DNA of 64,000 nucleotides from an uncultured delta proteobacterium (GTDB lineage: Bacteria > Desulfobacterota > SM23-61), in contig CAVXFA010000062.1 in the NCBI GenBank assembly GCA_963760605.1, positions 6,174 through 70,173 of the forward strand, written 5' to 3'. Within the stretch, counting starts at the first letter, position 1. Each line of letters opens with the position of its first letter. The notes beneath the pieces are model-generated. The model was given only the letters and a program-made list of their open reading frames with translations, was not told the origin of the DNA and searched no databases. This document shows positions 17,008-48,982 of the stretch, one piece after another. The position numbers and the translations under genes were made by a program.

Positions 17008-19244
<2,237 letters not shown>

Positions 19245-32351: not shown

Positions 32352-32386
32352 TAAAAAGCATACTCCCGGGGACAACTCTTAGGCAC

Positions 32387-32492
32387 AATATTTTGAGGGA
32401 TTTTCTGATTGACAGGCAATTGACCTGTAACCTATACTGCTTCCATCACTTCATCTTAGGCTCCTTCCATCATGAAGCACGTTTCTATCATT
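32387..32492 (+). promoter_or_regulatory. promoter-leader cassette, copy 1
   Basis: TTGACA at 32409-32414, TTGACC at 32420-32425, TATACT at 32433-32438, then GCTTCCATCA, a ~23 bp insertion and CTTCCATCATGAAGCACGTTTCTATCATTT. It lies upstream of the Nramp-like gene. Confidence 0.7.
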
Positions 32493-32734
32493 TGCGAAAG
32501 AGAATGCAGAAAAGGGAAGTCATCTACAATATCCTGGGACCGGACAAGCTCCGGCAACGATAAGGTGTCATTGAGCGGGAGGTGTGAGGGACGGAAGATA
32601 CAGCCTGTGATAACTTCTTGGATACAGCAGTCTTCATCCCAGGCTTAATGTTGAAGGAAAGAAAGGAGGTGGATGGATCGAGTTCATTATATTCCTTTTG
32701 GAAGGCTGCTTCGGGAGAGTAAAACATAAAGGAG

Positions 32735-34309
32735 GTGCAAGAAATGGCTCAAGATAAGATCAAGGCTCCCCCATTAACCGATGCGATCAGGTCGGCAAAG
32801 CTGAAGGATATGATCAAGTTCTTCGGCCCTGGGGCCATTATGGCCTCCCTGACCATCGGATCCGGGGAGACCTTCTTTGCCTCTCGTGGCGGGGCAATCT
32901 TCGGCTATGCCATCCTGTGGTCCTTCGTCCTGGGGTGTTTCTTCAAGTGGGTCCAGTGCTACACTGCCATGCGCTACCTGACCATCACCGGAGAGCATCC
33001 TATAGACCGCTGGGCCCATTTTCCCGGCCCCAGAGGGTGGTTCCCCTTATTGCTGGGGGCCCTCAGTATCCTGTGCTTTCCTTTCTGGCTTTCTTTCTTG
33101 CCCTCTTTGTTGGGCACCCTTTGCAAATGGATGTTCCATTTCGGGGATCATCTCTGGTGGGGGACCTTCTGGATTCTTTTCTTTGTAACCCTGACACTTT
33201 TAGGGGGATACAATGTCCTGGAGAAGGCGCAGATCGCGATCCTTTCCCTCATGATTGTGGCGGTCCTCTTCTCCGCTGTCTACTTCCAACCCGACTGGGG
33301 TGCGGTCCTTGCAGGATCTTTTATACCCCGGATTCCGGACTATGCCCCCTGGATCTTGCAGAAGTATCCGGATGTCGCCGCCCGACCTCCGTGGGTCGAA
33401 ATTACCGTTTATATCGGGGCCATTGGCGGTGGGACCTACGATTACATTGGCTACGTGGGAATGCTTCGGGAGAAGAATTGGGGCGTGCTCGGCCTTCCGA
33501 ACCTGGCTGAGGTCCAGCAAAGGATCTACGAGCTGAAAGAGAAGGGAGAACGGATTCCCCTCTCCGAAGAGGAGGGGGATGTAAAGACGGCCCTGGCCTG
33601 GACGAAGGCACCAGCCATCGACTCTATCGTTTCCTTCGCCTCGGTCATCATTTTTGCCTCCGGATTCATGATTGGAGGGGCCCGCTTGCTTCACGCGCAA
33701 CAGTTGATCCCCTCCGGATTGAAGCTCTTGGAGTACCAGGCCCAATTCCTCACTCAAATTCACCGCTGGCTGCTTCCGTTATATGACATGGGGGTCTTCC
33801 TGGCGGTTGCGGGCACCGTCTATGGGGCCTACGAGGTCTATACCCGAACCGCGTATGAATGCCTGCGAACCGTCTTCCCCGGACTGCGCAAAATCACCTT
33901 AAAAAAGGTCCGTCCCTGGGTATGCCTCTATGTGGGCGTAGCGGGCCTCTTTCTTATGTGGATGACCCGCCTTTTCCCCCAGGTGAAACTGATCGACCTC
34001 CCCACGCCCGCAGGGATCATTGGGGGGGTCATGACCTGTGGGCTCTGGTGCTTAGCCATGATCTGGACGGATCGGAAATATCTGCCCAAGCCCTATCAAA
34101 TGAGAGGCTGGCTGGTCTTCCTGAACTGGATCGCCGGTATCGGTATGGCATTTATGGGTCTCAAGGCTTGGTGGGACTACGCGGTGGATAAGTTTCACAG
34201 CGGCTGGTGGGGTTATCTCTTCCTGGCTGCCATGGTCGTGCTCTCCATGATCATTACGGCGATCATCAGCAGCTACTACCGGAAAAAGGGAGCGGCAGCG
34301 GCATCCTAA
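32735..34309 (+). CDS. Nramp-like (divalent metal cation transporter family) membrane protein
   Basis: 524 aa polytopic protein. FFGPGAIMASLTIGSGE...GGAIFGYAILW resembles the Nramp GPG.../DPGN-type TM1 region. Confidence 0.5.
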   Translation: MQEMAQDKIKAPPLTDAIRSAKLKDMIKFFGPGAIMASLTIGSGETFFASRGGAIFGYAILWSFVLGCFFKWVQCYTAMRYLTITGEHPIDRWAHFPGPRGWFPLLLGALSILCFPFWLSFLPSLLGTLCKWMFHFGDHLWWGTFWILFFVTLTLLGGYNVLEKAQIAILSLMIVAVLFSAVYFQPDWGAVLAGSFIPRIPDYAPWILQKYPDVAARPPWVEITVYIGAIGGGTYDYIGYVGMLREKNWGVLGLPNLAEVQQRIYELKEKGERIPLSEEEGDVKTALAWTKAPAIDSIVSFASVIIFASGFMIGGARLLHAQQLIPSGLKLLEYQAQFLTQIHRWLLPLYDMGVFLAVAGTVYGAYEVYTRTAYECLRTVFPGLRKITLKKVRPWVCLYVGVAGLFLMWMTRLFPQVKLIDLPTPAGIIGGVMTCGLWCLAMIWTDRKYLPKPYQMRGWLVFLNWIAGIGMAFMGLKAWWDYAVDKFHSGWWGYLFLAAMVVLSMIITAIISSYYRKKGAAAAS

Positions 34310-34337
34310 TTCCAGATGAAGCCTCGTAAATGATCCC

Positions 34338-34398
34338 TAATGTTGCATAAATATTTGCAAGGTGCATGTTCGTCATTCCCGCAAAAGCGGGAATCCAG
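34338..34398. repeat. IR plus hairpin element, copy X (TTGCATAAATATTTGCAAGG ... TCATTCCCGCaaaaGCGGGAATCCAGG)
   Basis: Shares ~60 bp of similarity with 41991-42072. Both copies sit immediately after the stop of a transporter gene. Confidence 0.6.
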
Positions 34399-34627
34399 GC
34401 CCTTCTCAAGACACTGGATGCCTGCCTGCGCGGGCATGACGGAATGTGACTTCCAGTGGAAGATAGGAAAACTCGGGAAATCTTATTTGAAGCCTTTTAG
34501 CAAAAGGGTTTCGCAAAGATTGTTGTCAGTTTTTTGCAACGTTAGGGTGATATGAAGAGAAAGGGGGGCAAGCCTGACGGTCAGTTACAGGGCCAAAGAT
34601 CCAGAGCAGCAAGAAAAGATCGAAGAA

Positions 34628-34873
34628 TTGGCAGGGATTCGGGAGGCCTACCGGCATCAGAGGCGGATCTGGCTGTGGATGATGGGGCTTTCCCTGTTGA
34701 GCTCCGCCATGCTTTTCCGCCGATCCAGCACCTTGGCTATGATCTTTGCCATGCTTTGCCTGGCGCTGGGTCTTTTTCTGGTCTGGAAATACCTGAAATC
34801 CACCCGGGTGATCCACACGATCGATAAAGGCCTTTCCCCCCATCGGGTGGAAGAAAGAAAGGCTCAGAAATAG
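34628..34873 (+). CDS. small hypothetical membrane protein
   Basis: 81 aa with two hydrophobic segments, just upstream of the MFS gene. Weak call. Confidence 0.3.
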   Translation: MAGIREAYRHQRRIWLWMMGLSLLSSAMLFRRSSTLAMIFAMLCLALGLFLVWKYLKSTRVIHTIDKGLSPHRVEERKAQK

Positions 34874-34933
34874 GTCAGAAGAGGGCTTTATGCTGTACTC
34901 GGTAAGAGCGCCACGGAAAGGAGGAATCTTCCA

Positions 34934-36232
34934 ATGACCGCCGAGAGTTCCCGCACAACGCCAGACCCCAGCGCTCCCCGGCCCACCTATATGCGATACC
35001 GGGTGCTGGGCATGCTCTTTTTGCTTTCGATCATTACCTATCTGGACCGTGTCTGTATCGGTGCGGCTGCCCCTCTGATGCGGCGTGACTTGGGCTTGAC
35101 CCCCCTGCAGATGGGGGCAGTCTTCAGCGCTTTCTCTCTGGCCTACGGGATTTTTGAAATCCCCGGCGGATGGCTCGGCGACCGTTTTGGCCCTCGCAGT
35201 ATGCTCATGCGGGTCGTAGTCTGGTGGTCCGCCTTCACCATGCTCACCGGACGGGTCACCAGCTTCTGGAGCCTCTGGATCACCCGGTTCCTTTTCGGTG
35301 CCGGCGAGGCCGGGGCGTATCCGAACAGCTCCTGTGCCATCGCCCAATGGTTTCCGTTCGCAGAGCGGGCCCGGGCTCAAGGCGGTGTCTGGATGGCGAG
35401 CCGGTTGGGCGGTGCCATCGCCCCACTCCTTGTCGTCCCGTTGCAGGCGCAGCTCGGCTGGCGCAACGTGTTTTACATCTTCGGCGCGATCGGAGTGGTT
35501 TGGGCAGCCGGATGGTATTTATGGTTCCGCGATCGTCCGGAGCAGAAACGTGGGGTCAACGCCCTCGAGATTCAATTCATTCGCGAAGGCGCGGCTCCTC
35601 CTCCAGCGCATACCACCACCCCCTGGAGAGTCCTGGTAACCAGCGGGAATTTGTGGGCCGTAATTCTCATGTACTTCACCTATGGCTACGGGGTGAATTT
35701 TTACTTCTTCTGGTTGCCCTCCTACCTGGTGGAAGTTCGAGGCATCGAGAATTTCGCCCCCTATGCTGCATTGCCGTTTCTGCTGGGGGCTTTCGCGAAC
35801 GCCTTCGGAGGTTGGACCAGCGACGCGCTCGTTCGCCGGATCGGCCTGAAGTGGGGCCGCCGGACGGTTGGCCTGGTTGGCCAAGGGAGCAGCGTGCTTT
35901 TCGTCCTGCTCTCCTTCGCCTCCTGGAATCCGGTGTATGCCGTCATTTCACTCGCCATGGGGTTCGCCGCTGCCGACTTCATGCTGCCGAATTGCTGGGC
36001 GGTCTGTCTGGATATCGGCAAACGCCATTCCGGCACGGTAACTGGGTTCATGAACACCGCCGCCCAGATCGGTGGAGCGATTGCCCTCACCGTGATTGGC
36101 TATTTCGCGGGACGCAAACAGTGGAACATTGCGATCCTGACGATGGCCGTAGGACTCATGATCAGTGCATTGCTCTATTTGGTGATTGACGCGAGCAAAC
36201 CCCTCGTTAGGGAAGAGGGCAGTCCAGAGTAG
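34934..36232 (+). CDS. MFS transporter (anion:cation symporter-like)
   Basis: 12-TM-like sequence. Motif LDRVCIGAAAPLMRRDLGL...G.LGDRFGPR. Confidence 0.75.
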   Translation: MTAESSRTTPDPSAPRPTYMRYRVLGMLFLLSIITYLDRVCIGAAAPLMRRDLGLTPLQMGAVFSAFSLAYGIFEIPGGWLGDRFGPRSMLMRVVVWWSAFTMLTGRVTSFWSLWITRFLFGAGEAGAYPNSSCAIAQWFPFAERARAQGGVWMASRLGGAIAPLLVVPLQAQLGWRNVFYIFGAIGVVWAAGWYLWFRDRPEQKRGVNALEIQFIREGAAPPPAHTTTPWRVLVTSGNLWAVILMYFTYGYGVNFYFFWLPSYLVEVRGIENFAPYAALPFLLGAFANAFGGWTSDALVRRIGLKWGRRTVGLVGQGSSVLFVLLSFASWNPVYAVISLAMGFAAADFMLPNCWAVCLDIGKRHSGTVTGFMNTAAQIGGAIALTVIGYFAGRKQWNIAILTMAVGLMISALLYLVIDASKPLVREEGSPE

Positions 36233-36410
36233 CTTCCCTCAGAGGGGAAACCGTCCCCTTCCGGAACGACCTTATGGAAAATTAGGCAAGACTGATCCAG
36301 AAGATCTTCGCGTTCGATCTCCTGCCCTGTCCCGGATGGCCAAAGCAGAGGAGGCTAGTAAGCTTCATCTGAGGACCCTCAGCTTATTAGAAAGACCCTA
36401 GCCCCCACAA

Positions 36411-36490
36411 GATTTTGATCGATTTTTCGATTGACATGCAACTGACTTGTGTCCTATACTCCTTCGGTCATGAAGCATTTGTTTACGGTC
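36411..36490 (+). promoter_or_regulatory. promoter-leader cassette, copy 2
   Basis: TTGACA at 36431-36436, CTGACT at 36442-36447, TATACT at 36455-36460, then CCTTCGGTCATGAAGCATTTG. Upstream of the permease gene at 36866. Confidence 0.65.
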
Positions 36491-36635
36491 ACAACGCGGG
36501 TTGGGGAGCTGAGGCTGTAGAATGATGCTCCGTTGATTTTCTATATGATGCGGGTCATTCTCGAAAAAGCCCTCGCCGTTCATTATGATAAAACTGCAAT
36601 TGGGAGAAAATAGGGGGGCCAGAAGGTCCCCCTAT

Positions 36636-36786
36636 TTATTAGTCAGTCCATAATTATATAGACGCCGAAGACCAAATCCCTCCTTCCCTCCCTTTACAAA
36701 AGGGAGGAATTTCCCCTCTTTGGAAAAGAGGGGTCAGGGGAGATTTTGGAAGAATATGTCTGGTCAATTATGGACTCCTTAGTAAC
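36636..36786. repeat. MITE-like repeat, copy 2
   Basis: Inverted copy of 16842-16980 with a short internal indel. It sits inside the leader between cassette copy 2 and the permease gene. Confidence 0.7.
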
Positions 36787-36865
36787 TTCTCCTCCAAGAG
36801 ATAGCAGCCAAGGCTGGTGTGATTTATTCGGGGAATCAAGAAGAACGAAGATACCCTGAAGCGGA

Positions 36866-37861
36866 GTGGATTGGGTTATGCATGATATAGACACTCTAAT
36901 TTCCTTTGGACCTCATCGCGTTGCGATGGGAGCCTATCATATGTTCCTCCACTTATGGTATTATCTTATAATCGGGATTTTTATCGGGGTAGCATTTAAT
37001 GTCTTCATGCCGCCGGGAATGCTCAATCGGTTAAAGAAAAATGCTAGCGGAACAAGTGGCATCCTCGTCGCCACCCTTTTAGGAATCGTATCTCCCCTCG
37101 GTTCCTATGCCGCAATTCCTACCCTGGTTGCCTTTTTGAGAATAGGGATTCCTTTGGCTACTGTAATGGCCTTTCTGACCGCTTCGCCATTGATCAACCC
37201 TTACATGTTCACCATTACCTTTCAGATCCTTGGGCCCAAGATGGCATTTGCCCGGCTCTTATCGGCGATCTTTATAGGCGTTCTAACGGGCTTGGCCTTC
37301 AGGTATTTAGCGCATTTTCGGCCCTTTCAAAATGGCTCCGCAGCCATAGCAGTCCCGAGTTTTGCCAAAGAAATCACGCTATCTAAAGAAACTGAGCCAC
37401 GGGGCAGCTCTACCGCCTTGGGGACTAGAAGCGAAAAATTCGCGGGGATGGGGAATCCTGACAGGTGGAAGGCTTTCTTTAGGGAATGCTTTAAGATGAC
37501 TGGCTATGCGGGGAAATGGTTCGTAATGTCCATTATCCTGGCCGCAGTGATTGACGTTTACGTTCCAGCCGATTGGATCGTCAAATCCTTAGGGGGCCAC
37601 ACTTACTCTCTTCTGCTGGCTGCAGGCATGGCGATTCCCTTATATGTTTGCGGCGGGGGTGCTGTTCCTTTCATCTGGGAACTCATGCGGTCAGGGATGG
37701 ATCAGGGGGCAGCCTTGACTTTCTTCATTGCCGGGCCCGTGACCCGAGTCGCTCCGATGCTAACCGTGATCTCCTTATTAGGGTACCCCTCGTTTATCGG
37801 CTATTTCTCGATTTCGATGTCCGCTGCACTGATTCTGGGATTCCTCTACCATTTTGTTTGA
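36866..37861 (+). CDS. putative permease (COG0701 / ArsP-like family)
   Basis: 331 aa polytopic protein with the typical two-repeat permease architecture and a hydrophilic central loop. Confidence 0.55.
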   Translation: MDWVMHDIDTLISFGPHRVAMGAYHMFLHLWYYLIIGIFIGVAFNVFMPPGMLNRLKKNASGTSGILVATLLGIVSPLGSYAAIPTLVAFLRIGIPLATVMAFLTASPLINPYMFTITFQILGPKMAFARLLSAIFIGVLTGLAFRYLAHFRPFQNGSAAIAVPSFAKEITLSKETEPRGSSTALGTRSEKFAGMGNPDRWKAFFRECFKMTGYAGKWFVMSIILAAVIDVYVPADWIVKSLGGHTYSLLLAAGMAIPLYVCGGGAVPFIWELMRSGMDQGAALTFFIAGPVTRVAPMLTVISLLGYPSFIGYFSISMSAALILGFLYHFV

Positions 37862-37986
37862 AATGAGGGCGATTGGCAATTTTGGGAAGGAAGGATTTAC
37901 GATAGAAACATTACGATAGAAACATCTTGACCTGGATCAGCCGGTGATATAAACTAAATGCCACTTTTTTCGTTAGAAAATACTCT

Positions 37987-38034
37987 AAATCCCCCCACCC
38001 CCCCCTTTACTAAAGGGGGGCAGGGGGGGATTTT
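37987..38034. repeat. palindromic G6/C6 element, copy B
   Basis: AAATCCCCCCACCCCCCCCTTTACTAAAGGGGGGCAGGGGGGGATTTT, upstream of the small exported protein gene. Confidence 0.8.
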
Positions 38035-38124
38035 CATGGTTCGCGGGTGGCCAAACGGCCATGGGTAGTTTTGCCGAAATGCTCGGGGCTGATGGCTCTT
38101 TCTGCTTTTGAGGGGAGAAGTCGC

Positions 38125-38529
38125 ATGATATCGAAAAATATGTGGCTGAGAGCCTCCTTCCTGGCAGTTGCCTTGTTCATGCTCCTTCCGGCGAGTGGTT
38201 CCTCCCAGCCCCAGATCGCGGTATCCGATTTCACGGTCCTGGACTGGTTCAAAGCGGTCAAACTAACCTGGCAGGCCTCAGCCTCGGAAGGGGGAGAGGG
38301 GATCTTCGAGATTTACCGCAGCGACAAGAAGAACGGTCCTTATACGCTGGTACAAGAGGTTCAACTCGGGGATAAGCAATTCATCGATGTCATCACTAAG
38401 ACCTATTCGTTCTTGGACAAGAGGCTGGAGCCCGGCCATAGTTATTACTATAAACTCGCCTTGAGGGGGACGGATCAGACCTTTGGCCCCTTCCGAGGTC
38501 TCGCCTCCGGGGCCCCCCCTGGAACTTGA
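38125..38529 (+). CDS. small exported FN3-like protein, paralog 1
   Basis: Signal peptide MISKNMWLRASFLAVALFMLLPASG. The mature part (FKAVKLTWQA...YRSDKKNGPY...HSYYYKLALRG) aligns along its full length with the ORF at 47920. Confidence 0.6.
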   Translation: MISKNMWLRASFLAVALFMLLPASGSSQPQIAVSDFTVLDWFKAVKLTWQASASEGGEGIFEIYRSDKKNGPYTLVQEVQLGDKQFIDVITKTYSFLDKRLEPGHSYYYKLALRGTDQTFGPFRGLASGAPPGT

Positions 38530-38712
38530 TGTGCGGGATACGAAACTTCACCGGGGGGGATATCCGGTAACGACCGCAGTCTCTCAGGGAGAAAGGGGGT
38601 GATGGGGAAGAAACCTTCCAGGTAGTGGACTCGAACCATGTAGTTGATTCGAGGTGTATGGTTTTTCTTTGACAACGCGGAGAACGATATTCAGAAAGGG
38701 GGAAGAACGATC

Positions 38713-39840
38713 ATGAGAAAGGCGATTTTCCTGGCAGGATTGTTTTTGTTGGTGGGGGCGACCCTCGCCTTTGCGGGGCCTACTGTCTCCATCGTGAAGT
38801 CGGATAATCACGAGCTTTCCGGGGAGCAATGGAACTTCAGCATGTACGATTTCAGCAAGCGATGGGAGACCACCTGGACCCCCGAGAGCGAGGCATACAT
38901 TGAGAAGATGGTGCGTCAAGCCGTGGACCTGGCAGGCGGCCTGCCGGTGAAGAGGGGAGACAATGTCATCATCAAGGTGAACCTGGTGCAGGATGCCTGG
39001 TATGTCCTTTCCATGGAGCTGACCAAGAACGATATCGACCCGATAAAATATCCGGTTCCCGATCAAAAATACATCAACCACCTGATGCAATCGATCCTCA
39101 CGGATGCCCGGGTGGCCAAGGCCGTATGCAAGATCGCCCAGGAAAAAGGTGCCGGCAGTGTCTCCATTATCGAGGGACCCAATGCCGGACTAACGGCCGC
39201 GTACTACCTGGTCTACGGGTATAAGAGTTGGGCAGACAAGATGGGCGTTAAGCTGCTCGATCCGGATGTCAATTGTACCCTCAGCAAGTATTACCCCAAG
39301 ACGAAAACTCAGGCTCTGCCCGAGTATACGCTTCCCGATCAATGGGTAAAGGCCGACGTTCGGATTTCCATCGGCAAGATGAAGACCCATGATAATTCCG
39401 GAATCAGCTTGACCCTCAAGAATGTGGCGGTGGGCATCGTTCCCCGCTCCGTCTATGGGGCGATCAAGCTGGGCCTGCCCCATGGCAACATGCATCATGT
39501 AGTGGCCGATGTGAACTCCATCTGTCCTGCTACCTTCTCTATCGTGGATGGGTTATGGGGCATGGAGGGATGGGGTGCCTTCCACGGGAAGCCCGTCGCC
39601 TCGGACCTCATCATTGCCGGCAAGGATGGAGTGGCGGTGGATGCCGTGGGTGGGATGTGCATGGGCGTCTTGCCCTGGATGATCGGAGGCATCCGGGAGT
39701 GCAACAATGCCGGGATCGGTAGCTACGAAAACATCAGCGTCGTAGGGACCAAGCTGGAAGATGCGATAATCCTTTATATGCCGGTACCCCCGGGCAAGCA
39801 TCCCGACTTAACTGCCTCGGGTGTGCTTGGCTGGCGTTAG
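38713..39840 (+). CDS. exported DUF362-domain protein, paralog 1
   Basis: RBS plus ATG (MRKAIFLAGLFLL). AVDLAGGLPVKRGDNVIIKVNL is the DUF362 core. 376 aa. Confidence 0.6.
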   Translation: MRKAIFLAGLFLLVGATLAFAGPTVSIVKSDNHELSGEQWNFSMYDFSKRWETTWTPESEAYIEKMVRQAVDLAGGLPVKRGDNVIIKVNLVQDAWYVLSMELTKNDIDPIKYPVPDQKYINHLMQSILTDARVAKAVCKIAQEKGAGSVSIIEGPNAGLTAAYYLVYGYKSWADKMGVKLLDPDVNCTLSKYYPKTKTQALPEYTLPDQWVKADVRISIGKMKTHDNSGISLTLKNVAVGIVPRSVYGAIKLGLPHGNMHHVVADVNSICPATFSIVDGLWGMEGWGAFHGKPVASDLIIAGKDGVAVDAVGGMCMGVLPWMIGGIRECNNAGIGSYENISVVGTKLEDAIILYMPVPPGKHPDLTASGVLGWR

Positions 39841-40049
39841 GCCGAGCCCGAAGGGTTTGACACTCCGTAAGAAAGGCAAAGAGGGGGGCGGCAAACAATG
39901 CAGCTCCCCTTTCTTTTTTCCCCTAAGCCGAAGGATTGAAGAGCCGGGCTCTATGTAATGCCGCTTGACGTAAACCAAAACTTGTGACTAAAATTAAAAA
40001 AATTTGTGCCTCCATGGGGTGTAGGCAGAATATAATTGTATTCATGATG

Positions 40050-40738
40050 TTATGATCATCAAATTAGATCATCTTGAAGTTATATTCGATAGTGGCCGGG
40101 AGACTCTGAAAGTCCTGGACATTCCTCATTGGCAGGTTGAGGAAGGGGATCAGGTAGCTATCTTTGGCCCCTAGGGTTCGGGCAAGTCCACGTTTCTCCA
40201 TGTTCTGGCCGGACTTCTTCCTGTATCGAAAGGGACGCTGAGCGTGTGCGGGCACTCTCTGGAGGGGATATCAGAGGCGGCCAGGGATCGTTTCCGGGCG
40301 AAGTATATTGGATATATATACCAGAATTTCAATTTGTTGCAAGGATATACGGCCCTGGAAAATGTCTTGATAGGGGTGACCTTCTCGGGGCGAAGGGGTG
40401 ATTTTAGGGAGGCCGAAGACCTGTTGGCCGAGGTTGGGCTTTCCCATCGATTGAAATATTATCCCTCCCAGATGTCCTTCGGTGAGCAGCAAAGGGTCGC
40501 TGTGGCCAGGGCCTTAGCGAATCGGCCTAAGCTTCTCTTAGCTGACGAGCCGACCGCTTCGTTACATCCGGTCAATAAGGAGGATGTCCTCAGGCTGTTG
40601 CGGGATATCTGCACAAGATACGGCTGCACCCTTGTGCTGGTCACTCACGAAAAGGAGGTCATCTCCTTGTTCGAAAAGACCATCCCTTTCCTGGAGTTTA
40701 ACCGGGTTTATCCGAACCATGAGGTGAGCCGGCCGTGA
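40050..40738 (+). CDS. MacB/LolD-type ABC transporter ATP-binding protein with an in-frame TAG inside Walker A
   Basis: Own translation from the ATG at 40050: MIIKLDHLEVIFDSGRETLKVLDIPHWQVEEGDQVAIFGP*GSGKSTFLHVLAG... The TAG is at 40131-40133. The paralogous fragment at ~43.85 kb has TCG at this position. The downstream part matches track ORF 40244..40738 (signature LSGGEQQR-like, Walker B LLLADEPT). Confidence 0.7.
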
Positions 40739-40752
40739 GTTTTTGGAGGATT

Positions 40753-41986
40753 ATGCTAAGGAGCTTGAGAGCAGCATCGCTTTTCCAGCGGTTTGGCTGT
40801 GATCAGCATTGCCCTGGGGATCGCCCTATTGGTCGCGGTTTACTCACTGAGGGAACAGTCTCATAATACCTTTACTCAGGTGGGGCTTGGGGTAGATGCG
40901 GTACTGGGCCCCCGAGGGTCACCGCTGCAGATCATCCTGAACTCCCTTTATCATCTGGAAGAAATGCCGGGCAAGATCAAATGGACCTATTTCAAGGAAG
41001 TGGAAAAGGACCCTCTCGTTGTCCAAGCAATTCCTTTTGTAGTAGGCCATTCCTATCGGGGTTTCAGAGTCAATGCGATTGACCGAAGGTTTCTGACGGA
41101 CTTTGAATATCTCCCTGGAAAACGGTTCTCCTTTTCTGAGAAAGAAGGGGGGCAGGGGCGTCCTTTCGGGGCACCTAACGAGGCGGTTGCCGGGTGGGTG
41201 GCCGCCAAGAGCTTGAAGCTAAGGCTTGGAGATGAGTTCAGTCCAGTTTGTGGGGTTCAGGAGGGCGGGCTGGTGCATGAGGAGGACAGGCTTTCCTTTG
41301 TGGGGATTTTAGCTCCGACCGGAACGCCGCATGATCGGGCGATTTATATCCCATTGGAAACCTTCTATGGGCTGGCAGGGCATCCACAGGAGACGAAGAT
41401 CATGGCGCAAGCGGAGGAACACCGGGAGATCAGTGGAGCCTACATCAAGATTAGGCGCATCCGTGGAGGCGCCTTGCATCCCGGCATCCAGGGTCTAAAG
41501 TTCGCGATCAACCAGTCGGACCGTAACCAGCTGGTCATTCCCAATGAAGTGATTCCTCGACTCTTTAACATCGTTGGCTGGGTGGATCGGGTGCTTATTG
41601 CCATAGCGGCTATTCTGACGGCGCTTTCGGCGCTATTCCTGTTCTTTTCTTTGCTCTCTGCTTTGAGGGAGAGAAGGCGGGATTTGGCTTTGTTTCGGGC
41701 GCTGGGGGCGACTCGGAAGACGGTTATGGGTCTGGTCATATTTGAGGCCCTGATCATCAGCCTTTTGGGCGGGATCTTGGGTCTGCTACTGGGTCACGGG
41801 TTGATCAGCATTGGCGCCCATTTTATTAAGGTAGAGACAGGGGTTAATTTCTCGGGGAGTTACCTGAGTCTGGCTGATTGGCTGGCGGTTCCGGGCACAG
41901 TCCTTTTGGGTTTAATGGCTGGTCTATTGCCTGGGATTCAGGCTTATCGCCTGGGAGTTCTGAAGAGCCTTTCACCCATATCTTAA
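40753..41986 (+). CDS. FtsX-like ABC transporter permease (MacB/LolC family) with a frameshift at its 5' end
   Basis: MLRSLRAASLFQRF (frame of the ATG at 40753) fits the N-terminal cytoplasmic segment. TM1 onward (LAVISIALGIALLVA...) is in frame +1 from ~40793. The C-terminal FtsX domain is intact. Confidence 0.65.
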
Positions 41987-41990
41987 CCGA

Positions 41991-42072
41991 AACGTTGCAT
42001 GAATATTCGCAAGGAGAAGATTTGTCATTCCCGCGAAGCTTGTCCCCGCGAAAGCGGGGAGCGGGAATCCAG
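41991..42072. repeat. IR plus hairpin element, copy Y
   Basis: AACGTTGCATGAATATTCGCAAGG..TGTCATTCCCGCGAAGCTTGTCCCCGCGAAAGCGGGGAGCGGGAATCCAG, with nested hairpins. It parallels 34338-34398. Confidence 0.6.
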
Positions 42073-42126
42073 TAAGGATCCAAAGCCCTACTAACAGATG
42101 GCCCAGAAAGGATTTAGGAAGAAGGT

Positions 42127-42702
42127 ATGAAAGTCAAAGCTTATTTCGTTGCGATTCTCGGTTTAGTTTTTTTCTTTCTGAGCCTGGGTATTTGGAATAT
42201 CTCTGAGGCGCAAAAGAAACCCGACAAGAAAGAAGGGAAAGGGGATGGGGTGCGGGTGATTGAAGAGACAGGTCCATTGGGACATAAGACCATCGGGATC
42301 GATGAAAGCTCAATCGTCCAGGATCCCAGCAAAGAGCTTTTACTTACCTATTCCGCCCTCATGACCTGGCAATATGATACAAAAAGCAATCCGCCCCCTC
42401 CTGGGGGGATAAAAAAATTAGACGGCCGGAAGGTCCGCATTACCGGGTTCATGTTTCCCCTGCAAGAAGGCACATCCATTCAGAACTTCTGCCTCTTGCG
42501 CACCACCCAGACCTGTTGCTATGGACCGCGCCCACAATACAACCAGTATATCTTCGTGGAGATGGCCAAGCCTACGGCTTTTCACCGTCTTGATCCTGTC
42601 ACCTGCGTGGGAAAGCTGAAAGTGGAACCCACTCCCGAGGAGGGGTTTATCTACCGCATGGAGGGTGAAATATGCGAATCCGTTTCCGCAAAAGAGAAGT
42701 AA
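42127..42702 (+). CDS. DUF3299-domain exported protein, accessory component of the MacB-type ABC module
   Basis: Signal peptide plus the conserved LLRTTQTCCYGPRP region. Confidence 0.55.
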   Translation: MKVKAYFVAILGLVFFFLSLGIWNISEAQKKPDKKEGKGDGVRVIEETGPLGHKTIGIDESSIVQDPSKELLLTYSALMTWQYDTKSNPPPPGGIKKLDGRKVRITGFMFPLQEGTSIQNFCLLRTTQTCCYGPRPQYNQYIFVEMAKPTAFHRLDPVTCVGKLKVEPTPEEGFIYRMEGEICESVSAKEK

Positions 42703-43033
42703 TAGCCATTGCGACAGGGACAATTATTGGGCTGCTTTTTCCGTAATCTGAAATCCGCAATCATAAATGGGCTGCCCCGGGCAGGGGAGATCCAGCCTTT
42801 GGCGGGGCAAAATCGGCCACGAATACCCTTTTCCTAAACTGCAGGCTCCATCCCAAAATAGGATAGCCGGGACAGAAAAATATTCGAATTAACCTCCTTG
42901 GCCCCCTCATCTTTTGAAAACCGCCATTTTGATAGGCTACTGTTGCAAAAATTACGTGGTAGTTTAAGAGGCGACAAGACTAAACTAAAAAGCTAGAGTG
43001 CGACTTCGGATTTAAGGCTCCCGGATCCTTTCC

Positions 43034-43945
43034 TCAATCTTTGAAATAACCTGCTGAGCTTTGGTTCTCAGTACAAAATAATCCAGCTCGTTGTCCTGAT
43101 TCTTTGATCCAGAGATCTCCTCTTCTTTGCCTTGCCATTCGACGAGCTTCAATCGGAGGAAGGGCAAAGGTCTGGCTATTTCCCCCCATTGCCAATACAT
43201 CCAATGTTACCATCATCAGCTGATGATCCTCACTTCTGCTGATAATTCCCGATAATCGCTCGGTCAATCGGGGATCACCGAGGGCATTCAGGATATAAGG
43301 GACTTCCATTTTCCTCTGGAGATTGATCTGGTCATACCTTTCCCAAATCCGATCGGCTATGCGAGTTGACCCGAGTTTGGCCAAGCTATGCGCGACGAAC
43401 AAACGGGTCTGAAATTCAGCTGAGCGAACCCCAAATGTGCTAAAGGTAACCCTCTTGACCAATTCGGACAAAATTTCCTCCAGCAAGGGAACCGAGTCGG
43501 TGTCCTTTAATTCGACAACATATCCTGCAGCCCTGATTTGGAGTGGGGGATTATCATTAGACTTCAAGCTTTCCCGGATGGTCGGCAGGGCGGCTCTTCC
43601 CTCTTTTTCATAAAGGATCCTTAGAGCATACAATGCTCGATTTTGATTTTCTTTTGCTAGCTGACCCGCCGCGACGCAAGCAGCACACCCCTCTGCGTTA
43701 CTTCCCCAGGAAAGCGAGAAGAAAAGGACCATAAAAAGAAGCCAGAGAAAGATGTTCTTCTCCAGGGAGTGCTTGCACACGGTGAGCTTTCCCTTCGATA
43801 TGGGAAGAAGGCCGGCTAGGATATGAAGAAAAGTGGACTTGCCCGAACCCGAGGGGCCAAAGAGGACTACCTGATCGCCTTCTTCTGCCTGCCAACGCGC
43901 AATGTCAAGACCCTTCAGAGTCTCCCGGCCACTATCGAATACCAC
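43034..43945 (-). CDS. chimeric ORF: a duplicated N-terminal fragment of the ABC ATPase (~60 aa) fused to an exported helical-repeat protein
   Basis: The N-terminus VFDSGRETLKGLDIARWQAEEGDQVVLFGPSGSGKSTFLHILAGLLPISKGKLTVCKHSLE is ~85% identical at DNA level to 40077-40250. It then runs into a signal-peptide-like stretch NIFLWLLFMVLFFSLSWGSNAEG and ~230 aa of helical repeats. GTG start; no upstream homology beyond the cassette. Confidence 0.5.
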   Translation of the reverse strand: MVFDSGRETLKGLDIARWQAEEGDQVVLFGPSGSGKSTFLHILAGLLPISKGKLTVCKHSLEKNIFLWLLFMVLFFSLSWGSNAEGCAACVAAGQLAKENQNRALYALRILYEKEGRAALPTIRESLKSNDNPPLQIRAAGYVVELKDTDSVPLLEEILSELVKRVTFSTFGVRSAEFQTRLFVAHSLAKLGSTRIADRIWERYDQINLQRKMEVPYILNALGDPRLTERLSGIISRSEDHQLMMVTLDVLAMGGNSQTFALPPIEARRMARQRRGDLWIKESGQRAGLFCTENQSSAGYFKD

Positions 43946-43971
43946 TTCCTGCTTCTTTGAATGGAAATACT

Positions 43972-44050
43972 TAGAAAATCTTTCGTGATTGACATGAAAT
44001 TGAGTTGTGTTCTATACTGCTTGCATAATGAAGCAGGTTCTTATCATTCT
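43972..44050 (+). promoter_or_regulatory. promoter-leader cassette, copy 3
   Basis: TTGACA at 43989-43994, TTGAGT at 44000-44005, TATACT at 44013-44018, then GCTTGCATAATGAAGCAGGTTCTTATCATTC. Upstream of the heme-PD40 gene. It abuts the truncated ATPase fragment on the other strand. Confidence 0.65.
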
Positions 44051-44117
44051 CCTATCTATTGAGACTGCGGTCGCTTAGCATTTTCGCCCAAACCACCTTT
44101 TTCCCTGGAGGTCTGTC

Positions 44118-46181
44118 ATGAAAAGTCACCACCATATCTTTGCAGTTGCCTTTTTTCTGGGCTTCCTGGCGCTTGTCCCGATGGAATCTGGAGCCTACTT
44201 AGATCAAATCAAGGGCAAGAAGGGACCTACGGGGGACGTGGTCCTCCAGGTGGGAGCCATGCCCGTCCCCCTTCCCTCGCGGCGTCAAATCATCGATGCA
44301 GATAAGGGGGCTTTCTGCCTGCAATGCCATCGGATGCCGTATCCCACGGCCCCGCAAAAGCCAGCAAAGCCGGGCGAAAAGGCATTGTCTTCGGTTCAAG
44401 TTACCCCTCCGGGAGGATGGCGGCTCCTGACACCCCTCACCGGCTTCAACGCGATAGCCGGCGGATGGAGCCCGGATGGAAAGCACATCGTCTATTCGAT
44501 CAATCTCTTCGAGAAGGATTGGGATATCTGGGTCATGGATGCGGATGGCAAGAACCGGGCTCCCCTTATTTCGGGCTCGGCGATCAAAATGGCGCCGGAT
44601 TGGAGCCCGGACGGCAAATTCATCGTCTTTCAATCGAATCGCTCGGGAAACTTCGATATATGGATAATGGAAATAGCCACCAAGAAGCTGACCCAACTGA
44701 CCAACGAGCCAAGTGAAGAGACTATGCCCAGATGGTCTCCCGATGGGAAGAAGATCGTCTTCCAGTCTAATCGGTCTGGCAACGAGGATATTTGGACGGT
44801 GGATATCGCAACCGGCCAATGGACCCAACTAACCAACAGCCCGGCCAAGGATGAGAATCCTGTCTTCAGTCCCAACGGGCAGCAGATCGCCTTCGTCTCA
44901 GACCGAAACGGAAAGAAAGATATTTTTGTCATGAACGCTGATGGAAGTGATCAGAGAGCTCTCACCTCAGAACCCGGGGATAATATCGCTCCTCATTGGA
45001 GCCCGGATGGAAAGAAGATCATCTTTTCCCGCAAGGGTGCAGATAACAACCTGCATCTCTGGGTGATGAATGCCGATGGATCGGAGCAGATCCGCCTGAC
45101 GACCCATCCCACCTCGCAGATCGGTCCCTACTGGAGCCCGGACGGAAAGTGGGTCATCTTCACTTCCAACATCCGCGGCAACTGGGATGTCCTCCTGATG
45201 CAGGTGGATGCCTCCATGGTCGATCCATCTCGCAGCCCGCTCAAGCGCTTGACCGATAGCGAGGCCCGGGAGGTGGGCGCCATCTGGAGCCCGGATGGGA
45301 AGAAGATCGCCTACAACTCGGATGCGAATGGACATTGGAGCATTTGGACGATGGGTCCCGATGGTAAGAACAAGCGCCAACTGACCGGAGACGATGAGGA
45401 CGCCGGCTGGCCTTCCTGGAGCCCGGATGGGAAGAAGATCCTTTACTGGGGCTGCCGGGATGGCAACCAGGATGTCTGGGTGATGGATGCGGATGGATCG
45501 AACAAGAGGCGGCTGACCGATCATCCGGCATTGGATGGGGACGCGCAGTGGAGCCCGGACGGGAAGAGGATCGTCTTCGTCTCCGAGCGCACCGGCAAGG
45601 GTGATATCTATGTCATGGATGCCGATGGGTCAAACCAGAAGCGCCTGACCTTCACCGATGCCCTCGATTGGACGCCTTATTGGAGCCCGGATGGGAAGAA
45701 GATCGCCTATGTTTCCAATCAGACCGGGAAATGGGAGATCTGGGCATTGGACGTGGAGACCCTGGAGGGCAAGCACCTCACGCCTGATTCCGGTGGCAAC
45801 TTTGTGCCGCGGTGGAGGCCGCCGGATGGGAGTCAGATATGCTATGTGGGATGGCGAGGGGGTGAGTACACCATCAAGGGCAGTTTTGATGTGGTGGTCA
45901 TGAACGTGGACGGCAGCGGAAAGAGGGAACTGGCCCCGTCCCCGTTCGACGAGCGATCATCGCGTTGGAGCCCGGATGGTAGCAGGATCGTGTTTTGGTC
46001 CTGGCGAACCGGGAGCCCGCAGATCTATGTGATGAATGCGGACGGAAGTGGCTTAAGACAGCTCACTGACAATCTGGCCTACAATGTCTTCCCCTCCTGG
46101 AGCCCGGATGGAAAGAGGATTGCCTTCGAGTCTGACCGCATGGGCAACTTCGACATCTGGGTGATGGAAGTGCCGGAATAG
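44118..46181 (+). CDS. periplasmic TolB-like protein with 13 PD40 beta-propeller repeats and an N-terminal CxxCH heme-binding motif
   Basis: Signal peptide, then GAFCLQCHRM (CxxCH), then 13 repeats of the ..WSPDGK.I.F.. type. Confidence 0.7.
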   Translation: MKSHHHIFAVAFFLGFLALVPMESGAYLDQIKGKKGPTGDVVLQVGAMPVPLPSRRQIIDADKGAFCLQCHRMPYPTAPQKPAKPGEKALSSVQVTPPGGWRLLTPLTGFNAIAGGWSPDGKHIVYSINLFEKDWDIWVMDADGKNRAPLISGSAIKMAPDWSPDGKFIVFQSNRSGNFDIWIMEIATKKLTQLTNEPSEETMPRWSPDGKKIVFQSNRSGNEDIWTVDIATGQWTQLTNSPAKDENPVFSPNGQQIAFVSDRNGKKDIFVMNADGSDQRALTSEPGDNIAPHWSPDGKKIIFSRKGADNNLHLWVMNADGSEQIRLTTHPTSQIGPYWSPDGKWVIFTSNIRGNWDVLLMQVDASMVDPSRSPLKRLTDSEAREVGAIWSPDGKKIAYNSDANGHWSIWTMGPDGKNKRQLTGDDEDAGWPSWSPDGKKILYWGCRDGNQDVWVMDADGSNKRRLTDHPALDGDAQWSPDGKRIVFVSERTGKGDIYVMDADGSNQKRLTFTDALDWTPYWSPDGKKIAYVSNQTGKWEIWALDVETLEGKHLTPDSGGNFVPRWRPPDGSQICYVGWRGGEYTIKGSFDVVVMNVDGSGKRELAPSPFDERSSRWSPDGSRIVFWSWRTGSPQIYVMNADGSGLRQLTDNLAYNVFPSWSPDGKRIAFESDRMGNFDIWVMEVPE

Positions 46182-46220
46182 GTTCGCAAAAGAAGAGAGC
46201 GTCCTGAAGGCTTAGGCGGC

Positions 46221-46340
46221 AATATTTGAGCGATTTTTTAAATTGACATGCAATTGACTTGTGTCCTATACTGCCTCCGTCGTCACTTTTTTTTCATTCC
46301 CTATGCCGCTTCCATCATGAAGCACGTTCCTATCATTTAC
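46221..46340 (+). promoter_or_regulatory. promoter-leader cassette, copy 4
   Basis: TTGACA at 46243-46248, TTGACT at 46254-46259, TATACT at 46267-46272, a 34 bp insertion, then CTTCCATCATGAAGCACGTTCCTATCATTT. A perfect hairpin, CTTCTCCCCCA gtt TGGGGGAGAAG, follows at 46366-46390. Confidence 0.7.
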
Positions 46341-46609
46341 ATAGAAAATACCCTAAATACCCCGGCTTCTCCCCCAGTTTGGGGGAGAAGGAAAGGGTAA
46401 GGGGAAAGAGGGATTTTTATCATTCGTGGGCGCCAAGCCGTCAGGAATGATGAGTTATGAAATGGAGTTTCCAAAAGGTACCAATACGTTGCCTCCAGGG
46501 GGGGTTTTAGGCCCTCTTGGAGGCTTTTGTATTTGGGCCTACGATAATGTAAGATTAGGCGGAAGACAAGGAAATCTGGTTCGCAACTTAAGGAAAAGGA
46601 GGAAGTAGC

Positions 46610-47772
46610 ATGAAGAAGTGGCACATTGTTGCTGTTTGTTTGTTGGGACTCTTGTTGCTGGCATGGTCTCGAGCCGCTGTGGCCGGACCTAAGGTGGCCA
46701 TTGTCCAAGGGAATGAAAAGATATTGAAAGGTTCAGTGATCGCCCCCGAGCGATGCTGGGCTATCTGCCCAAGCATCCGGAAGGTGGACGCGAGGACCTT
46801 GGCTGGACCTTAGAGTATACGCCAGAGAGCATTCAGGAAGTTGAGAGGATGGTCCGTAAGGCCGTTGATTTGGCGGGTGGATGGCCGGTTAAAAGCGGGG
46901 ACACGGTATTTATCAAGTTCAACGCCAATAACGATCAATGGTATCTGTTATCCACTGGTCACGGGAATGCGGAGGACTTCGCTGCCACGAACACGGATGG
47001 CCGGATCGCTAGAGCAGTCGCGCTCTTGTGCAAGGAGTCGGGGGCCAGGAGGATCATTATCGGCGAAGCCCCTGGACTCGCCAACGCTATTCCATCCATG
47101 AGAGTGTGGGGAGCCGAAATGGCGGTTAAGGAGGCGGGAGCTGAGCTCGTTGACCTTGACAATGTGCCTTACAGATGGGTCAAAGCCCCGCATGCCCTGG
47201 CAGCTGCGGAGTACGCTATACCTGCAGTAGTGCTGGATGCGGATGTAGTGATCAGCGTGGCAAACCTGAAGACCCATGGCTTTGCGGGCACTACAGGGGT
47301 CTTAAAGAACATCGGTATCGGCGTTCCTCCCAACAAGGTCTATGGTGCTCCTAAGACAGGATTGCGTCACGATGTGCTGCGAAGACCCAAAGTGATGTAT
47401 GCGATATCGTGAAGGCTAAGTATCAACATCTTAGGCGCCATCTACGGTGGGGAAGGAGCTGGGCCTACGATGTGCAAGGGTATTTACCAGGGCATAATTC
47501 TTGCCGGTAAAGATCCAGTGGCCATAGATTACGTAGGGAGTGCCTGCATGGGTGAGAATCCAGAACGTTTCGGCTACCTGCGAATAGGCCAGCGAGATCG
47601 GTCTGGGCACATACAAAGACATCCAGGTGGTTGGCAAGAGTATCGGGGAAGTCATGAAGCAATATGCGCCACTTCCAGGCCATGGACCCGGCGCTTTTGG
47701 AGAAGTTTGGGGCTGGCCGTAAGATTCGCCTTGGATGAGGGGGAGGACGTAGGTTCTCCCTCCCTCATGTAA
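46610..47772 (+). pseudogene. exported DUF362-domain protein, paralog 2, broken by at least two frameshifts
   Basis: Signal peptide ORF 46610..46813. The core AVDLAGGWPVKSGDTVFIKFN is in ORF 46753..47412. The C-terminal part is in ORF 47470..47772 (AGKDPVAIDYVGSACMG). It aligns with the 38713..39840 protein across all three frames. Confidence 0.6.
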
Positions 47773-47832
47773 GATGAGGGGGCGCCATAGAGTATGACAC
47801 GCCCTCTCACCGTAGCATGCCTGAACTTTTCT

Positions 47833-47863
47833 GCCCTCCCCATTACACGGGGAGGGCTTTTTA
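47833..47863 (+). terminator. rho-independent terminator (GCCCTCCCC attacac GGGGAGGGC TTTTT)
   Basis: Perfect 9 bp GC stem followed by a T5 run, after the DUF362 paralog. Confidence 0.7.
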
Positions 47864-47919
47864 ATTGCAGACCATAGATCGTAAGAGGCTAAGAGGTCCT
47901 TTGTATCCTTGAAGGGAGG

Positions 47920-48336
47920 ATGGATTTGATGTCAAATTATCTGAAGACCCCACTCTTGGTGCTGGCTCTGGTGGTTGCTTTAGTGGCCTTCCTTCCCGGG
48001 GTGGGATTTTCTCAAGAGAAAGTCTCGATATACGATTTCTACGTTTTCAATTGGCTGAAAGCCGTCAAGCTGAATTGGAAGGCTGCCGCTCCCGAGGGCG
48101 CAGAGGGAACCCTCCAGGTTTACCGGAGCGATAAGGAAAACGGTCCCTATTCGCTTGTGCAAGAGATAAGACTGGGCGACCGGGGATTCATCGATGTCAT
48201 CACAGGGACCTATGTCTTCTTCGACAGGAAGGTGGAGGCCGACCACAGCTATTACTATAAGCTGGGGCTGCGGGGGTCCAGTCAAAGTTTGGGTCCCTTA
48301 AGAGGACTCGCCCGCAGCGGCCCTCCTGGGACTTGA
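47920..48336 (+). CDS. small exported FN3-like protein, paralog 2
   Basis: About 60% identical to the 38125..38529 product, including the conserved C-terminal tail GP(F/L)RGLA..PPGT. Confidence 0.6.
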   Translation: MDLMSNYLKTPLLVLALVVALVAFLPGVGFSQEKVSIYDFYVFNWLKAVKLNWKAAAPEGAEGTLQVYRSDKENGPYSLVQEIRLGDRGFIDVITGTYVFFDRKVEADHSYYYKLGLRGSSQSLGPLRGLARSGPPGT

Positions 48337-48353
48337 AAGACCGTCACATTATG

Positions 48354-48436
48354 AATATTTTGAGCGGTTTTTTGATTGACATGCAATTGACTTGTGCCCT
48401 ATACTGCTTCCATCATGAAGGAAATTTCTATCCTTA
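48354..48436 (+). promoter_or_regulatory. promoter-leader cassette, copy 5 (most compact copy)
   Basis: AATATTTTGAGCGGTTTTTTGA, TTGACA at 48376-48381, TTGACT at 48388-48393, TATACT at 48400-48405, then GCTTCCATCATGAAGGAAATTTCTATCC. It sits 20 nt ahead of the cupin gene start. Confidence 0.7.
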
Positions 48437-48456
48437 GCGCCAAGGAGGGAACAGAA

Positions 48457-48936: not shown

Positions 48937-48982
48937 AGGGCGAGACTCCTCCACCCGGCTCACTAATAGTTTCTGCGTAAAT

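Follow-up and report, generated by a model that had tools for sequence, protein, structure and literature searches.

How did five unrelated genes in a 16-kb island of one bacterial genome come to be preceded by the same short sequence, and what might that sequence do there? The question is raised by a 64-kb stretch of DNA from an uncultured delta proteobacterium (assembly GCA_963760605.1, contig CAVXFA010000062.1), which we refer to as the window and whose positions are used for all coordinates below. A first reading of the window, here called the original prediction, had described five plus-strand copies of a promoter-leader cassette in the island, and the copies are where it placed them: 32387–32493 (copy 1), 36409–36491 (copy 2), 43967–44049 (copy 3), 46221–46338 (copy 4) and 48354–48436 (copy 5), with none elsewhere in the 64 kb, none on the minus strand and none inside a gene. 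We think it rather probable that the five repeats are paralogs derived from a single bipartite sigma-70 promoter-leader unit, lying before unrelated genes in one rearranging island, and they are best read as duplicated units of the kind described as putative mobile promoters.

A 31-nt core, ATTGACANGNAANTGANNTGTNNNCTATACT, with 23 specified bases taken from columns invariant in all copies, had exactly five matches in the window (starts at 32408, 36430, 43988, 46242 and 48375, all on the plus strand) and none in 100 shuffles. A 30-mer from the consensus of the original prediction found four sites at ≤3 mismatches, and a downstream block, TGCTTCCATCATGAAGCA, matched five times at ≤3 mismatches against 0.04 expected, once after each core. 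Both the core and the downstream block were recovered independently by a repeat finder as five-copy families (D2 and D6). In a MAFFT alignment the similarity was colinear over ~85 nt with unrelated sequence on both sides; as had been claimed, it goes beyond the −35 and −10 hexamers, taking in a T-rich stretch, the spacer and ~30 nt downstream before ending abruptly. The 60-nt flanks are 18–37% identical (18–33% upstream), which is the random level, and the unit is therefore sharply bounded. It is ~83 nt long in copies 2, 3 and 5 and 107–118 nt long in copies 1 and 4, which share this long form and are also homologous over ~10 nt more at the 5′ end (CTTAGGC..CAATATT). The near-identity of ~85–90% in the original prediction was too generous: pairwise identity is 63–88% over the 52-nt upstream part (module A) and 59–89% over the 37-nt downstream module, and only the 32-nt core of copies 2, 4 and 5, 18-nt spacer included, reaches 94%. 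Over module A the closest pairs are 1–2 (81%), 1–5 (87%), 2–5 (88%) and 4–5 (81%), with copy 3 at 63–69%. It is important to note that single-base indel errors are likely in this assembly, since the window has many split genes including Obg, which is normally essential, and exact T-run lengths in the cassettes are not reliable. The genes for Obg, a radical-SAM protein and an ABC_ATPase are split or truncated (18219–19109, 22729–24056 and 24190–26011).

Module A consists, in order, of the T-rich stretch AATATTTTGAG-CGATTTTTTGA, TTGACA, an 18-bp spacer TGCAATTGACTTGTGTCC and TATACT. TTGACA-18-TATACT matches the sigma-70 consensus at 11 of 12 positions in every copy, as the original prediction had it, and its 18-bp spacing lies within the 16–18 bp of sigma-70 promoters. 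The cassettes are the sole 11/12 matches in the 19 kb scanned (31500–50500), and the −35, the −10 and their spacing are the most conserved parts of the unit. Within the spacer a second ATTGAC/TTGAC(T), which had been placed one helical turn after the first, lies exactly 11 bp past it in all five copies; the direct repeat ATTGACNNNNNATTGAC is found at ≤1 mismatch in each of them against 0.25 expected, and among related copies the second repeat varies least at ATTG. A promoter scan returned a second possible promoter with the same 11-bp shift, TTGACT-18-CATCAT. A direct repeat of this period over the −35 and spacer would fit an OmpR/PhoB-type winged-helix repressor or a second RNA-polymerase register. 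Two palindromic operators in the spacer, ACAKG-N7-CYTGT (perfect in copy 1) and AYRCAA-N5-TTGYRT (near-perfect in copy 4 of the related contig L005, introduced below), were considered and rejected because neither holds across the copies.

Module B, TTCCATCATGAAGCACGTTCCTATCATT, begins directly after the −10, which places the predicted start site within it; its consensus over twelve distinct copies from the window and its relatives is gcTTcCATcaTGAAgca.gtT.ctATcaTt. In the short forms it adjoins module A: copy 2 has module A at 36409–36460 and a degenerate module B at 36461–36491, copy 3, the most divergent, has them at 43967–44018 and 44019–44049, and copy 5 at 48354–48405 and 48406–48436. Copies 1 and 4 had been credited with insertions of 23–34 bp that were partly duplications. 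The partial duplication is real, with the inserts measuring 24 and 35 nt and being decayed tandem duplicates of the whole −10 hexamer plus module B, each ending in a second TAnnCY hexamer (TAGGCT in copy 1, TATGCC in copy 4), so that the conserved module B is displaced 24–35 nt downstream. In copy 1, module A (32387–32438, with the −35 at 32409–32414 and the −10 at 32433–32438) is followed by the decayed proximal duplicate GCTTCCATCACTTCATCT at 32439–32456, where nhmmer gave a partial match at 32433–32448, and then by TAGGCT and module B, CCTTCCATCATGAAGCACGTTTCTATCATTT, at 32457–32493. In copy 4 the corresponding parts are module A at 46221–46272, the decayed duplicate at 46273–46301, and TATGCC with the conserved distal module B at 46302–46338. 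A 96%-identical sister strain (contig L003) has the ortholog of copy 1 with a further, third tandem copy of 42 nt in register. The inverted repeat GCTTC-N6-GAAGC that the original prediction placed across the start site fared less well: it is complete in some copies only, its outer stem pairs are often mismatched, and near-invariance is confined to TTC-N6-GAA. If transcription begins ~7 nt past the −10, transcripts of the short forms would lack the left arm of this dyad. Folding nine copies as RNA gave z-scores from +1.5 to −2.2, with no stable or covarying structure, and Rfam gave no match at gathering thresholds across the window and only chance-level matches at E up to 5 in 32300–48600.

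The genes that follow copies 1 to 5 belong to five non-homologous Pfam families, Nramp, ArsP_1, PD40, DUF362 and Cupin_2, and code for exported or membrane proteins as had been stated. All on the plus strand, they are an Nramp-like transporter (ATG 32744), an ArsP_1 permease (ATG 36878), a PD40 propeller protein with a signal peptide and a CLQCH heme motif (44118–46181), DUF362 paralog 2 (DUF362-2), which has a signal peptide (start 46610), and an exported cupin, also with a signal peptide (ATG 48457). The distance from the end of the cassette to the start codon is ~250, 387, 68, 271 and 20 nt, respectively, and the module B ATG of copy 5 (48415) is in frame with the cupin gene. The upstream neighbours are likewise non-homologous, namely Hist_deacetyl, MFS_1, a minus-strand ABC/HEAT remnant, PD40 and a small protein without a Pfam match. 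Because the downstream genes are unrelated and the similarity extends beyond the hexamers, duplication of a promoter unit is much likelier than convergence, and on this point we agree with the original prediction. The unit probably equips all the transcription units with one and the same strong promoter and with common binding sites for a single putative regulator; a shared promoter with shared predicted sites would make the five units co-regulated. What we infer is initiation of transcription at the cassettes, a role of the spacer repeat and of module B as regulatory targets, and joint expression of the five units.

We compared the window with related contigs from uncultured Thermodesulfobacteriota. 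Pattern scans of metagenome contigs returned only L003 and L004 (both JGI 3300018018; L014, below, is from JGI 3300056887), protein-guided retrieval added loci at graded distances, and these were then searched with nhmmer profiles. Orthologous cassettes occur in L003, L004/L022, L005 and L014, and no cassette was found in more distant relatives. L004/L022 have the ortholog of copy 5 and no copy 4; there DUF362-2 comes after another DUF362 gene, and the match to the window begins at 46420. In L014 cassettes precede both DUF362-2 and the cupin gene. L005, whose genes are ~86–89% identical at the nucleotide level, has a cassette with a decayed −10 and module B before ArsP and a long-form cassette before the DUF362-2 leader, and lacks a counterpart of copy 3 before PD40. 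Strains thus differ in which genes carry a cassette. The window's DUF362-2 has four 1-nt indels relative to its L014 ortholog (46757, 47378, 47427 and 47594), and for at least some of the broken genes assembly errors are the likely cause.

Further out, nhmmer found no cassette at Nramp homologs of 85% and 74% amino acid identity (L008, L011), at cupin homologs of 70–77% (L026, L029, L030), at the ABC/DUF3299 operon of L017 or at a DUF362-2 homolog of 81% (L031). L029 has a diverged colinear promoter, TTGACA-18-TATGCT, followed by the same leader and terminator as in the window, and L031 has CTGACA-18-TATTCT-CCTTTCCTAATGAAGG. Both keep the −35, the spacing and the −10 context, and L031 also the module B core, with the second ATTGAC not kept in either. 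Because these loci carry colinear diverged promoters, the cassette looks like a native promoter that was expanded in one narrow clade. A scan of genome contigs with the degenerate 31-mer gave only a chance match in a Clostridiales metagenome-assembled genome, scans of viral contigs and BLAST against plasmids and phages gave no cassette match, and a literature search for the motif strings returned nothing relevant.

As a neutral benchmark we used the four-fold degenerate sites of the flanking genes, which are ~78% identical between the window and L014, 67–82% between the window and L005 and 88% between the window and L022. Since orthologous copies occur in the related contigs, the family predates the split of lineages at 67–82% four-fold-site identity, and copies 2, 4 and 5 are at least that old because they have positional orthologs in L005 and/or L014. 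The paralogous cores of copies 2, 4 and 5 are closer to one another (94%) than some positional orthologs are (78–84%), and the core of L014 copy 4 is 97% identical to window copy 5, suggesting either purifying selection on non-hexamer positions or gene conversion between copies. Between copy 4 and its L014 ortholog the distal module B is 84% identical and the adjacent proximal duplicate 66% by a hand count, both on small samples.

BLAST of the island against the related loci showed that gene order differs among the window, L005, L014 and L022, with breakpoints at cassette edges. Homology to L005 ends at 32315, the end of the deacetylase gene, and resumes at 32680, with copy 1 in the gap. The Nramp gene, a 106-aa gene and the PD40 gene are contiguous in L005; in the window 9 kb with MFS, the ArsP block and an ABC operon lie between them. 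The PD40 gene of the window has gained copy 3, and homology to L005 resumes at 44078, just past that copy. In L014 a 3.3-kb block with an SSF transporter and two small genes has its insertion point precisely at window position 46225, where copy 4 has its 5′ edge. No terminal inverted repeats are shared by the unit ends of the copies, no tRNA was found in the island analysis, no transposase, integrase or recombinase was found in the scanned open reading frames (ORFs) of the island, and no integrase or recombinase is among the gene calls of the related loci. For these reasons spread by duplication and recombination is favoured over autonomous mobility, and the probable route is duplication of the unit with recombination, homologous or illegitimate, between segments of the island and not transposition. 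The idea of a mobile promoter unit therefore survives in part: duplication and presence/absence differences between strains are borne out, and an autonomous element, for which one would look to terminal inverted repeats, a transposase or a phage or plasmid match, is not.

Several observations weigh against the reading of the cassettes as duplicated promoter units. No regulator gene is linked to the cassette in any locus, and the sole local regulator in the window is a PhoB/PhoR-like pair at 62241–64000, 14 kb away. The best intrinsic terminator of the region (stem 46491–46524, T-tail to 46534) stands between copy 4 and DUF362-2, and a terminator-like hairpin, GGGGGGCC-AGAA-GGTCCCCC followed by TATTTATT (36613–36640; read from the sequence and not among the terminator-scan hits), stands between copy 2 and ArsP_1, so that the cassette alone may not drive these two genes. 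The wording of the original prediction, in which the cassettes drive the island, is overstated on this count, and the ABC/FtsX/DUF3299 operon within the island has a promoter-like site of its own. In L005 a module B with neither module A nor a −10 lies ~100 nt before the Nramp-like gene, and B may therefore have a role independent of the promoter. Copy 3 is apparently lineage-specific yet the most diverged copy, which is odd for a recent duplicate. Conservation between orthologs is only slightly above the neutral benchmark at such low divergence, the copy number is that of 64 kb of a 102-kb contig and a few related contigs, and promoter activity and the start site are predicted from consensus matches.

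The strongest alternative, which we regard as unlikely, is that module B is a portable leader element acting after initiation and not a DNA operator. It might be a near-leaderless mini-ORF start (ATG AAG CAC GTT CCT ATC ATT, MKHVPII) whose translation modulates downstream termination or translation, it might carry −10-like hexamers (CATCAT, TATCAT) that cause sigma-dependent promoter-proximal pausing or the loading of an antitermination factor so that leader terminators are read through, or it might be a small RNA or protein target in the 5′ untranslated region. The conservation of module B independently of its distance from the promoter, and its presence in L005 where module A is missing, suggest that it acts downstream of initiation, as a roadblock operator, as −10-like pause elements or as the MKHVPII start. 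It is conserved even where it lies 24–35 nt or more from the −10 (copies 1 and 4; L003, L005 and L014), and the promoter-proximal duplicate decays while the displaced B is kept. The 42-nt tandem duplicate in L003 keeps the reading frame, codon 6 is ATC, ATT or ATA (all Ile), codon 4 is only V, I or A and codon 7 only I, L, V or M, and the module B ORF shares its frame with the leader ORF further on in L005 and L014. The hexamer at the TATCAT position (TATCAT, TATTAT, TATAGT, TATCCT, GATCAT) keeps A2 and T6 except in the degenerate copy 2, and B is followed by a terminator in copy 4 and by a terminator-like hairpin in copy 2. With that said, no Shine-Dalgarno sequence precedes the module B ATG, and leaderless translation cannot work in the long forms, where this ATG is 34–45 nt away from the predicted start. 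Copies differ in how long the ORF is and where it stops, in one L003 copy CTG replaces the ATG, and the substitutions are too few for a coding test. No gene for a NusG paralog or a Q-like protein was seen, the ops consensus is not enriched, and no stable or covarying RNA fold was obtained.

A bolder proposal, which we consider distinctly improbable, joins this alternative to the promoter: the cassette would be a portable two-part expression module made of a near-consensus promoter and a position-independent leader element, with recombination between copies shuffling genes for secreted proteins and transporters, in blocks that bring their promoter along, in an integrase-free gene-cassette system. 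Module B, as the MKHVPII mini-ORF start or as a sigma-pause or antiterminator-loading site, would then control read-through of leader terminators.

It is very unlikely that the cassettes are chiefly recombination substrates or scars, providing portable homology or putative recombinase sites for the excision, reinsertion and shuffling of gene blocks, with their promoter-likeness secondary. In favour of this, cassette edges coincide with synteny breakpoints in the window, L005, L014 and L022, and sequences do not follow positional orthology (L014 copy 4 with window copy 5), as exchange between copies would have it; module B has an imperfect dyad with a 6-bp spacer, and the island is otherwise full of small mobile repeats. 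However, the scanned island ORFs and the gene calls of the related loci hold no integrase or recombinase gene, every copy is directed at a gene with none sitting between two convergent ones, conservation is highest in precisely the promoter elements, and RecA works poorly on 85-nt repeats that are 60–90% identical. A non-functional or selfish short interspersed repeat, similar to a miniature inverted-repeat transposable element (MITE) or a repetitive extragenic palindromic (REP) sequence and with promoter-like hexamers by chance, is highly improbable. Other short repeats do occur in the same intergenic regions (an AAYGTTGCA MITE polymorphic between the window and L003, and G-rich hairpin repeats), but the cassette lacks terminal inverted repeats, its five copies and every related copy found are co-oriented with the downstream gene, the minus strand and the gene interiors of the 64 kb are free of it, and all five copies score 11/12 as promoters, with the −35, −10 and spacing most conserved. 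Five independent promoters that converged under selection for the same transcription-factor and RNA polymerase sites, as a regulon without common descent, are hardly credible, because although the downstream genes are unrelated and selection in any regulon would act on the hexamers and a putative operator, the ~85-nt colinear similarity includes a distal T-rich stretch and positions without obvious function, the long form and ~10 nt of extra 5′ homology are common to copies 1 and 4, and the diverged L029 and L031 homologs show how far a merely orthologous promoter drifts.

Read as duplicated promoter units, the cassettes come closest to one category in the literature. Putative mobile promoters, as described by Matus-Garcia, Nijveen and van Passel in 2012 (PMC3488235) and by Nijveen et al. 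in 2012 (PMC3575422), are upstream sequences of 50–100 nt with at least 80% identity before non-homologous coding sequences, found in more than 1000 genomes (PMC3488235); they vary between close strains, and most have no identity to insertion sequences or riboswitches (PMC3488235; PMC3575422). The cassettes likewise are homologous upstream sequences with non-homologous genes and upstream neighbours, within one genome, and variable between strains. At the identity used for putative mobile promoters (>50 nt, ≥80%), four of the ten copy pairs qualify over the 52-nt module A, and copy 3, at 63–69%, falls below it and is at most a diverged member. By distance to the start codon the set is split, with copies 3 and 5 ending 68 and 20 nt from it and copies 1, 2 and 4 more than 150 nt away. 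The cassettes differ in being clustered in one 16-kb island where putative mobile promoters are dispersed, and in being bipartite, with an independently conserved leader module and an internal tandem duplication.

Three other types of system resemble parts of the cassette. JUMPStart/ops is a short conserved 5′-leader element of RfaH-dependent operons for exported or surface components, placed upstream of terminators that need read-through. Module B is similar in being a leader element whose distance from the promoter can vary. The likeness is an analogy and no more; module B comes physically joined to a conserved promoter, and no NusG paralog was seen. The RfaH ops consensus GGCGGTAGnnTG was tried and is not above chance in the window. 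Pho-box-type operators of OmpR/PhoB-family response regulators are direct repeats with 11-bp periodicity, and the cassette has two direct repeats of 11-bp period overlapping the −35 (ATTGACAnnnnATTGAC). However, its second repeat reaches to 7 bp from the −10, a repressor-like geometry, and no activator would be needed since the −35 is already consensus. The genes are not those of a phosphate regulon either, no cassette-like or otherwise similar repeat lies upstream of the PhoB/PhoR-like pair, and nothing links that pair to the cassette. The pair consists of an OmpR-family response regulator followed by a PhoR-like histidine kinase (HAMP, PAS, FVANVSHELRTPLTAIKGY), directly after a type II secretion cluster.

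The third resemblance is to leader-peptide/terminator attenuators. The leader between copy 4 and DUF362-2 (46457–46534, plus strand) has an 18-codon ORF, MKWSFQKVPIRCLQGGF (46457–46510), that runs into the 5′ arm of the strong intrinsic terminator. The same ORF and terminator occur in L004 (minus strand, ~12470–12390), L005 (15876–15960), L014 (3636–3700) and L029 (1355–1450), where in L029 they precede a cupin gene. In the K-V/I-P-I codons of this ORF the lineages differ only at third positions or conservatively (GTA/GTG/ATA, CCA/CCG), and the P-I codons stay 4–5 nt from the terminator stem, a distance kept in four lineages. Unlike known attenuators, this leader has no Rfam match, no regulatory amino-acid runs and no covarying antiterminator helix, over five sequences. 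We regard the leader ORF and terminator as a candidate ribosome-dependent attenuator without an Rfam match. The leader between copy 2 and ArsP_1 (36413–36640) is 72% identical over 210 nt to L005 6507–6728 and has an 18-nt stretch, ATGATGCGGGTCATTCTC, identical in L005 (mini-ORF MMRVIL...), after which the window has the T-tailed hairpin at 36613–36640; it may be another attenuator-like leader.

Two further comparisons concern zinc. The Desulfovibrio-type Zur box is a 7-3-7 palindrome, ATGCAACNNNGTTGCAT (PMC545781), and it was rejected: only copy 2 matches at ≤3 mismatches, against 1.7 chance hits in the window, and dyad symmetry is inconsistent between copies. An ABC ATPase/FtsX-MacB permease/DUF3299 operon inside the island (40052–42702) resembles ZrgC/ZrgB/ZrgE of Vibrio, and ZrgBCE is a Zur-regulated zinc-uptake system there (PMC9817125). 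This operon has a different promoter-like site of its own (39965–39994) and no cassette, and in L017 it stands in an unrelated context outside the island, so the likeness says nothing on the regulator of the cassette. A possible lead to the regulator is a GntR/FCD-family gene in L033 (4674–5339, minus strand) that adjoins a homolog of DUF362-2 (81% amino acid identity), and the promoter of that lineage keeps the module B core CCTTTCCTAATGAAGG.

The island has other features in its own right. A MITE-like element of ~213 bp (34335–34547) follows the Nramp-like gene, with AAYGTTGCA termini and internal GTCATTCCCGC..GCGGGAAT palindromes. The 96%-identical L003 lacks it cleanly, and an incomplete second copy (41987–~42100) follows the FtsX gene, where L017 has a 162-aa gene. 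G/C-rich CCCCTC..GAGGGG hairpin repeats occur at 36667–36753, 46366–46390 (directly after copy 4 module B) and 50607–50674 in the window, at 5428–5481 in L005, at 6082–6148 in L014 and at 4299–4390 in L022. Their intergenic positions differ by strain, and they are REP-like repeats that add to intergenic turnover. The ABC ATPase gene of the Zrg-like operon has an in-frame TAG in its Walker A motif (40172–40174; GP*GSGKS, where L017 has TCA), which may be real because two base changes are needed. A 303-aa minus-strand ORF (43034–43945) adjoins copy 3 divergently and fuses an N-terminal ABC-ATPase fragment to a HEAT-repeat part. It matches the L017 ABC operon in reverse (81% and 70% identity), which marks it, from sequence comparison, as what is left of a second ABC/DUF3299/HEAT operon after inversion and internal deletion. 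A pair of small exported paralogs (38047–38529 and 47920–48336) has a C-terminal ...GPLRGLA..GPPGT in common; no Pfam match was noted for the pair. Each shares a gene block with a DUF362 paralog, a pairing that recurs in L005, L014, L022 and L031.

Taken together, the promoter reuse seen here is real though fairly ordinary, and what sets it apart is the bipartite build of the unit, the tandem duplication of the −10 with the leader module, the gathering of the copies in one island and their coincidence with breakpoints. As a natural example of such reuse it is clean, with strain comparisons showing copies gained, lost, part-duplicated and at breakpoints. The independently conserved module B and the copy 4 leader ORF and terminator are parts that could hold new regulatory biology, and the cassette is a compact candidate strong promoter for work on Thermodesulfobacteriota. 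If active, the cassette would mark a small co-regulated set consisting of two transporters, a PD40 propeller protein with a heme motif, a DUF362 protein and an exported cupin, and would give a handle for grouping proteins that have no assigned function.

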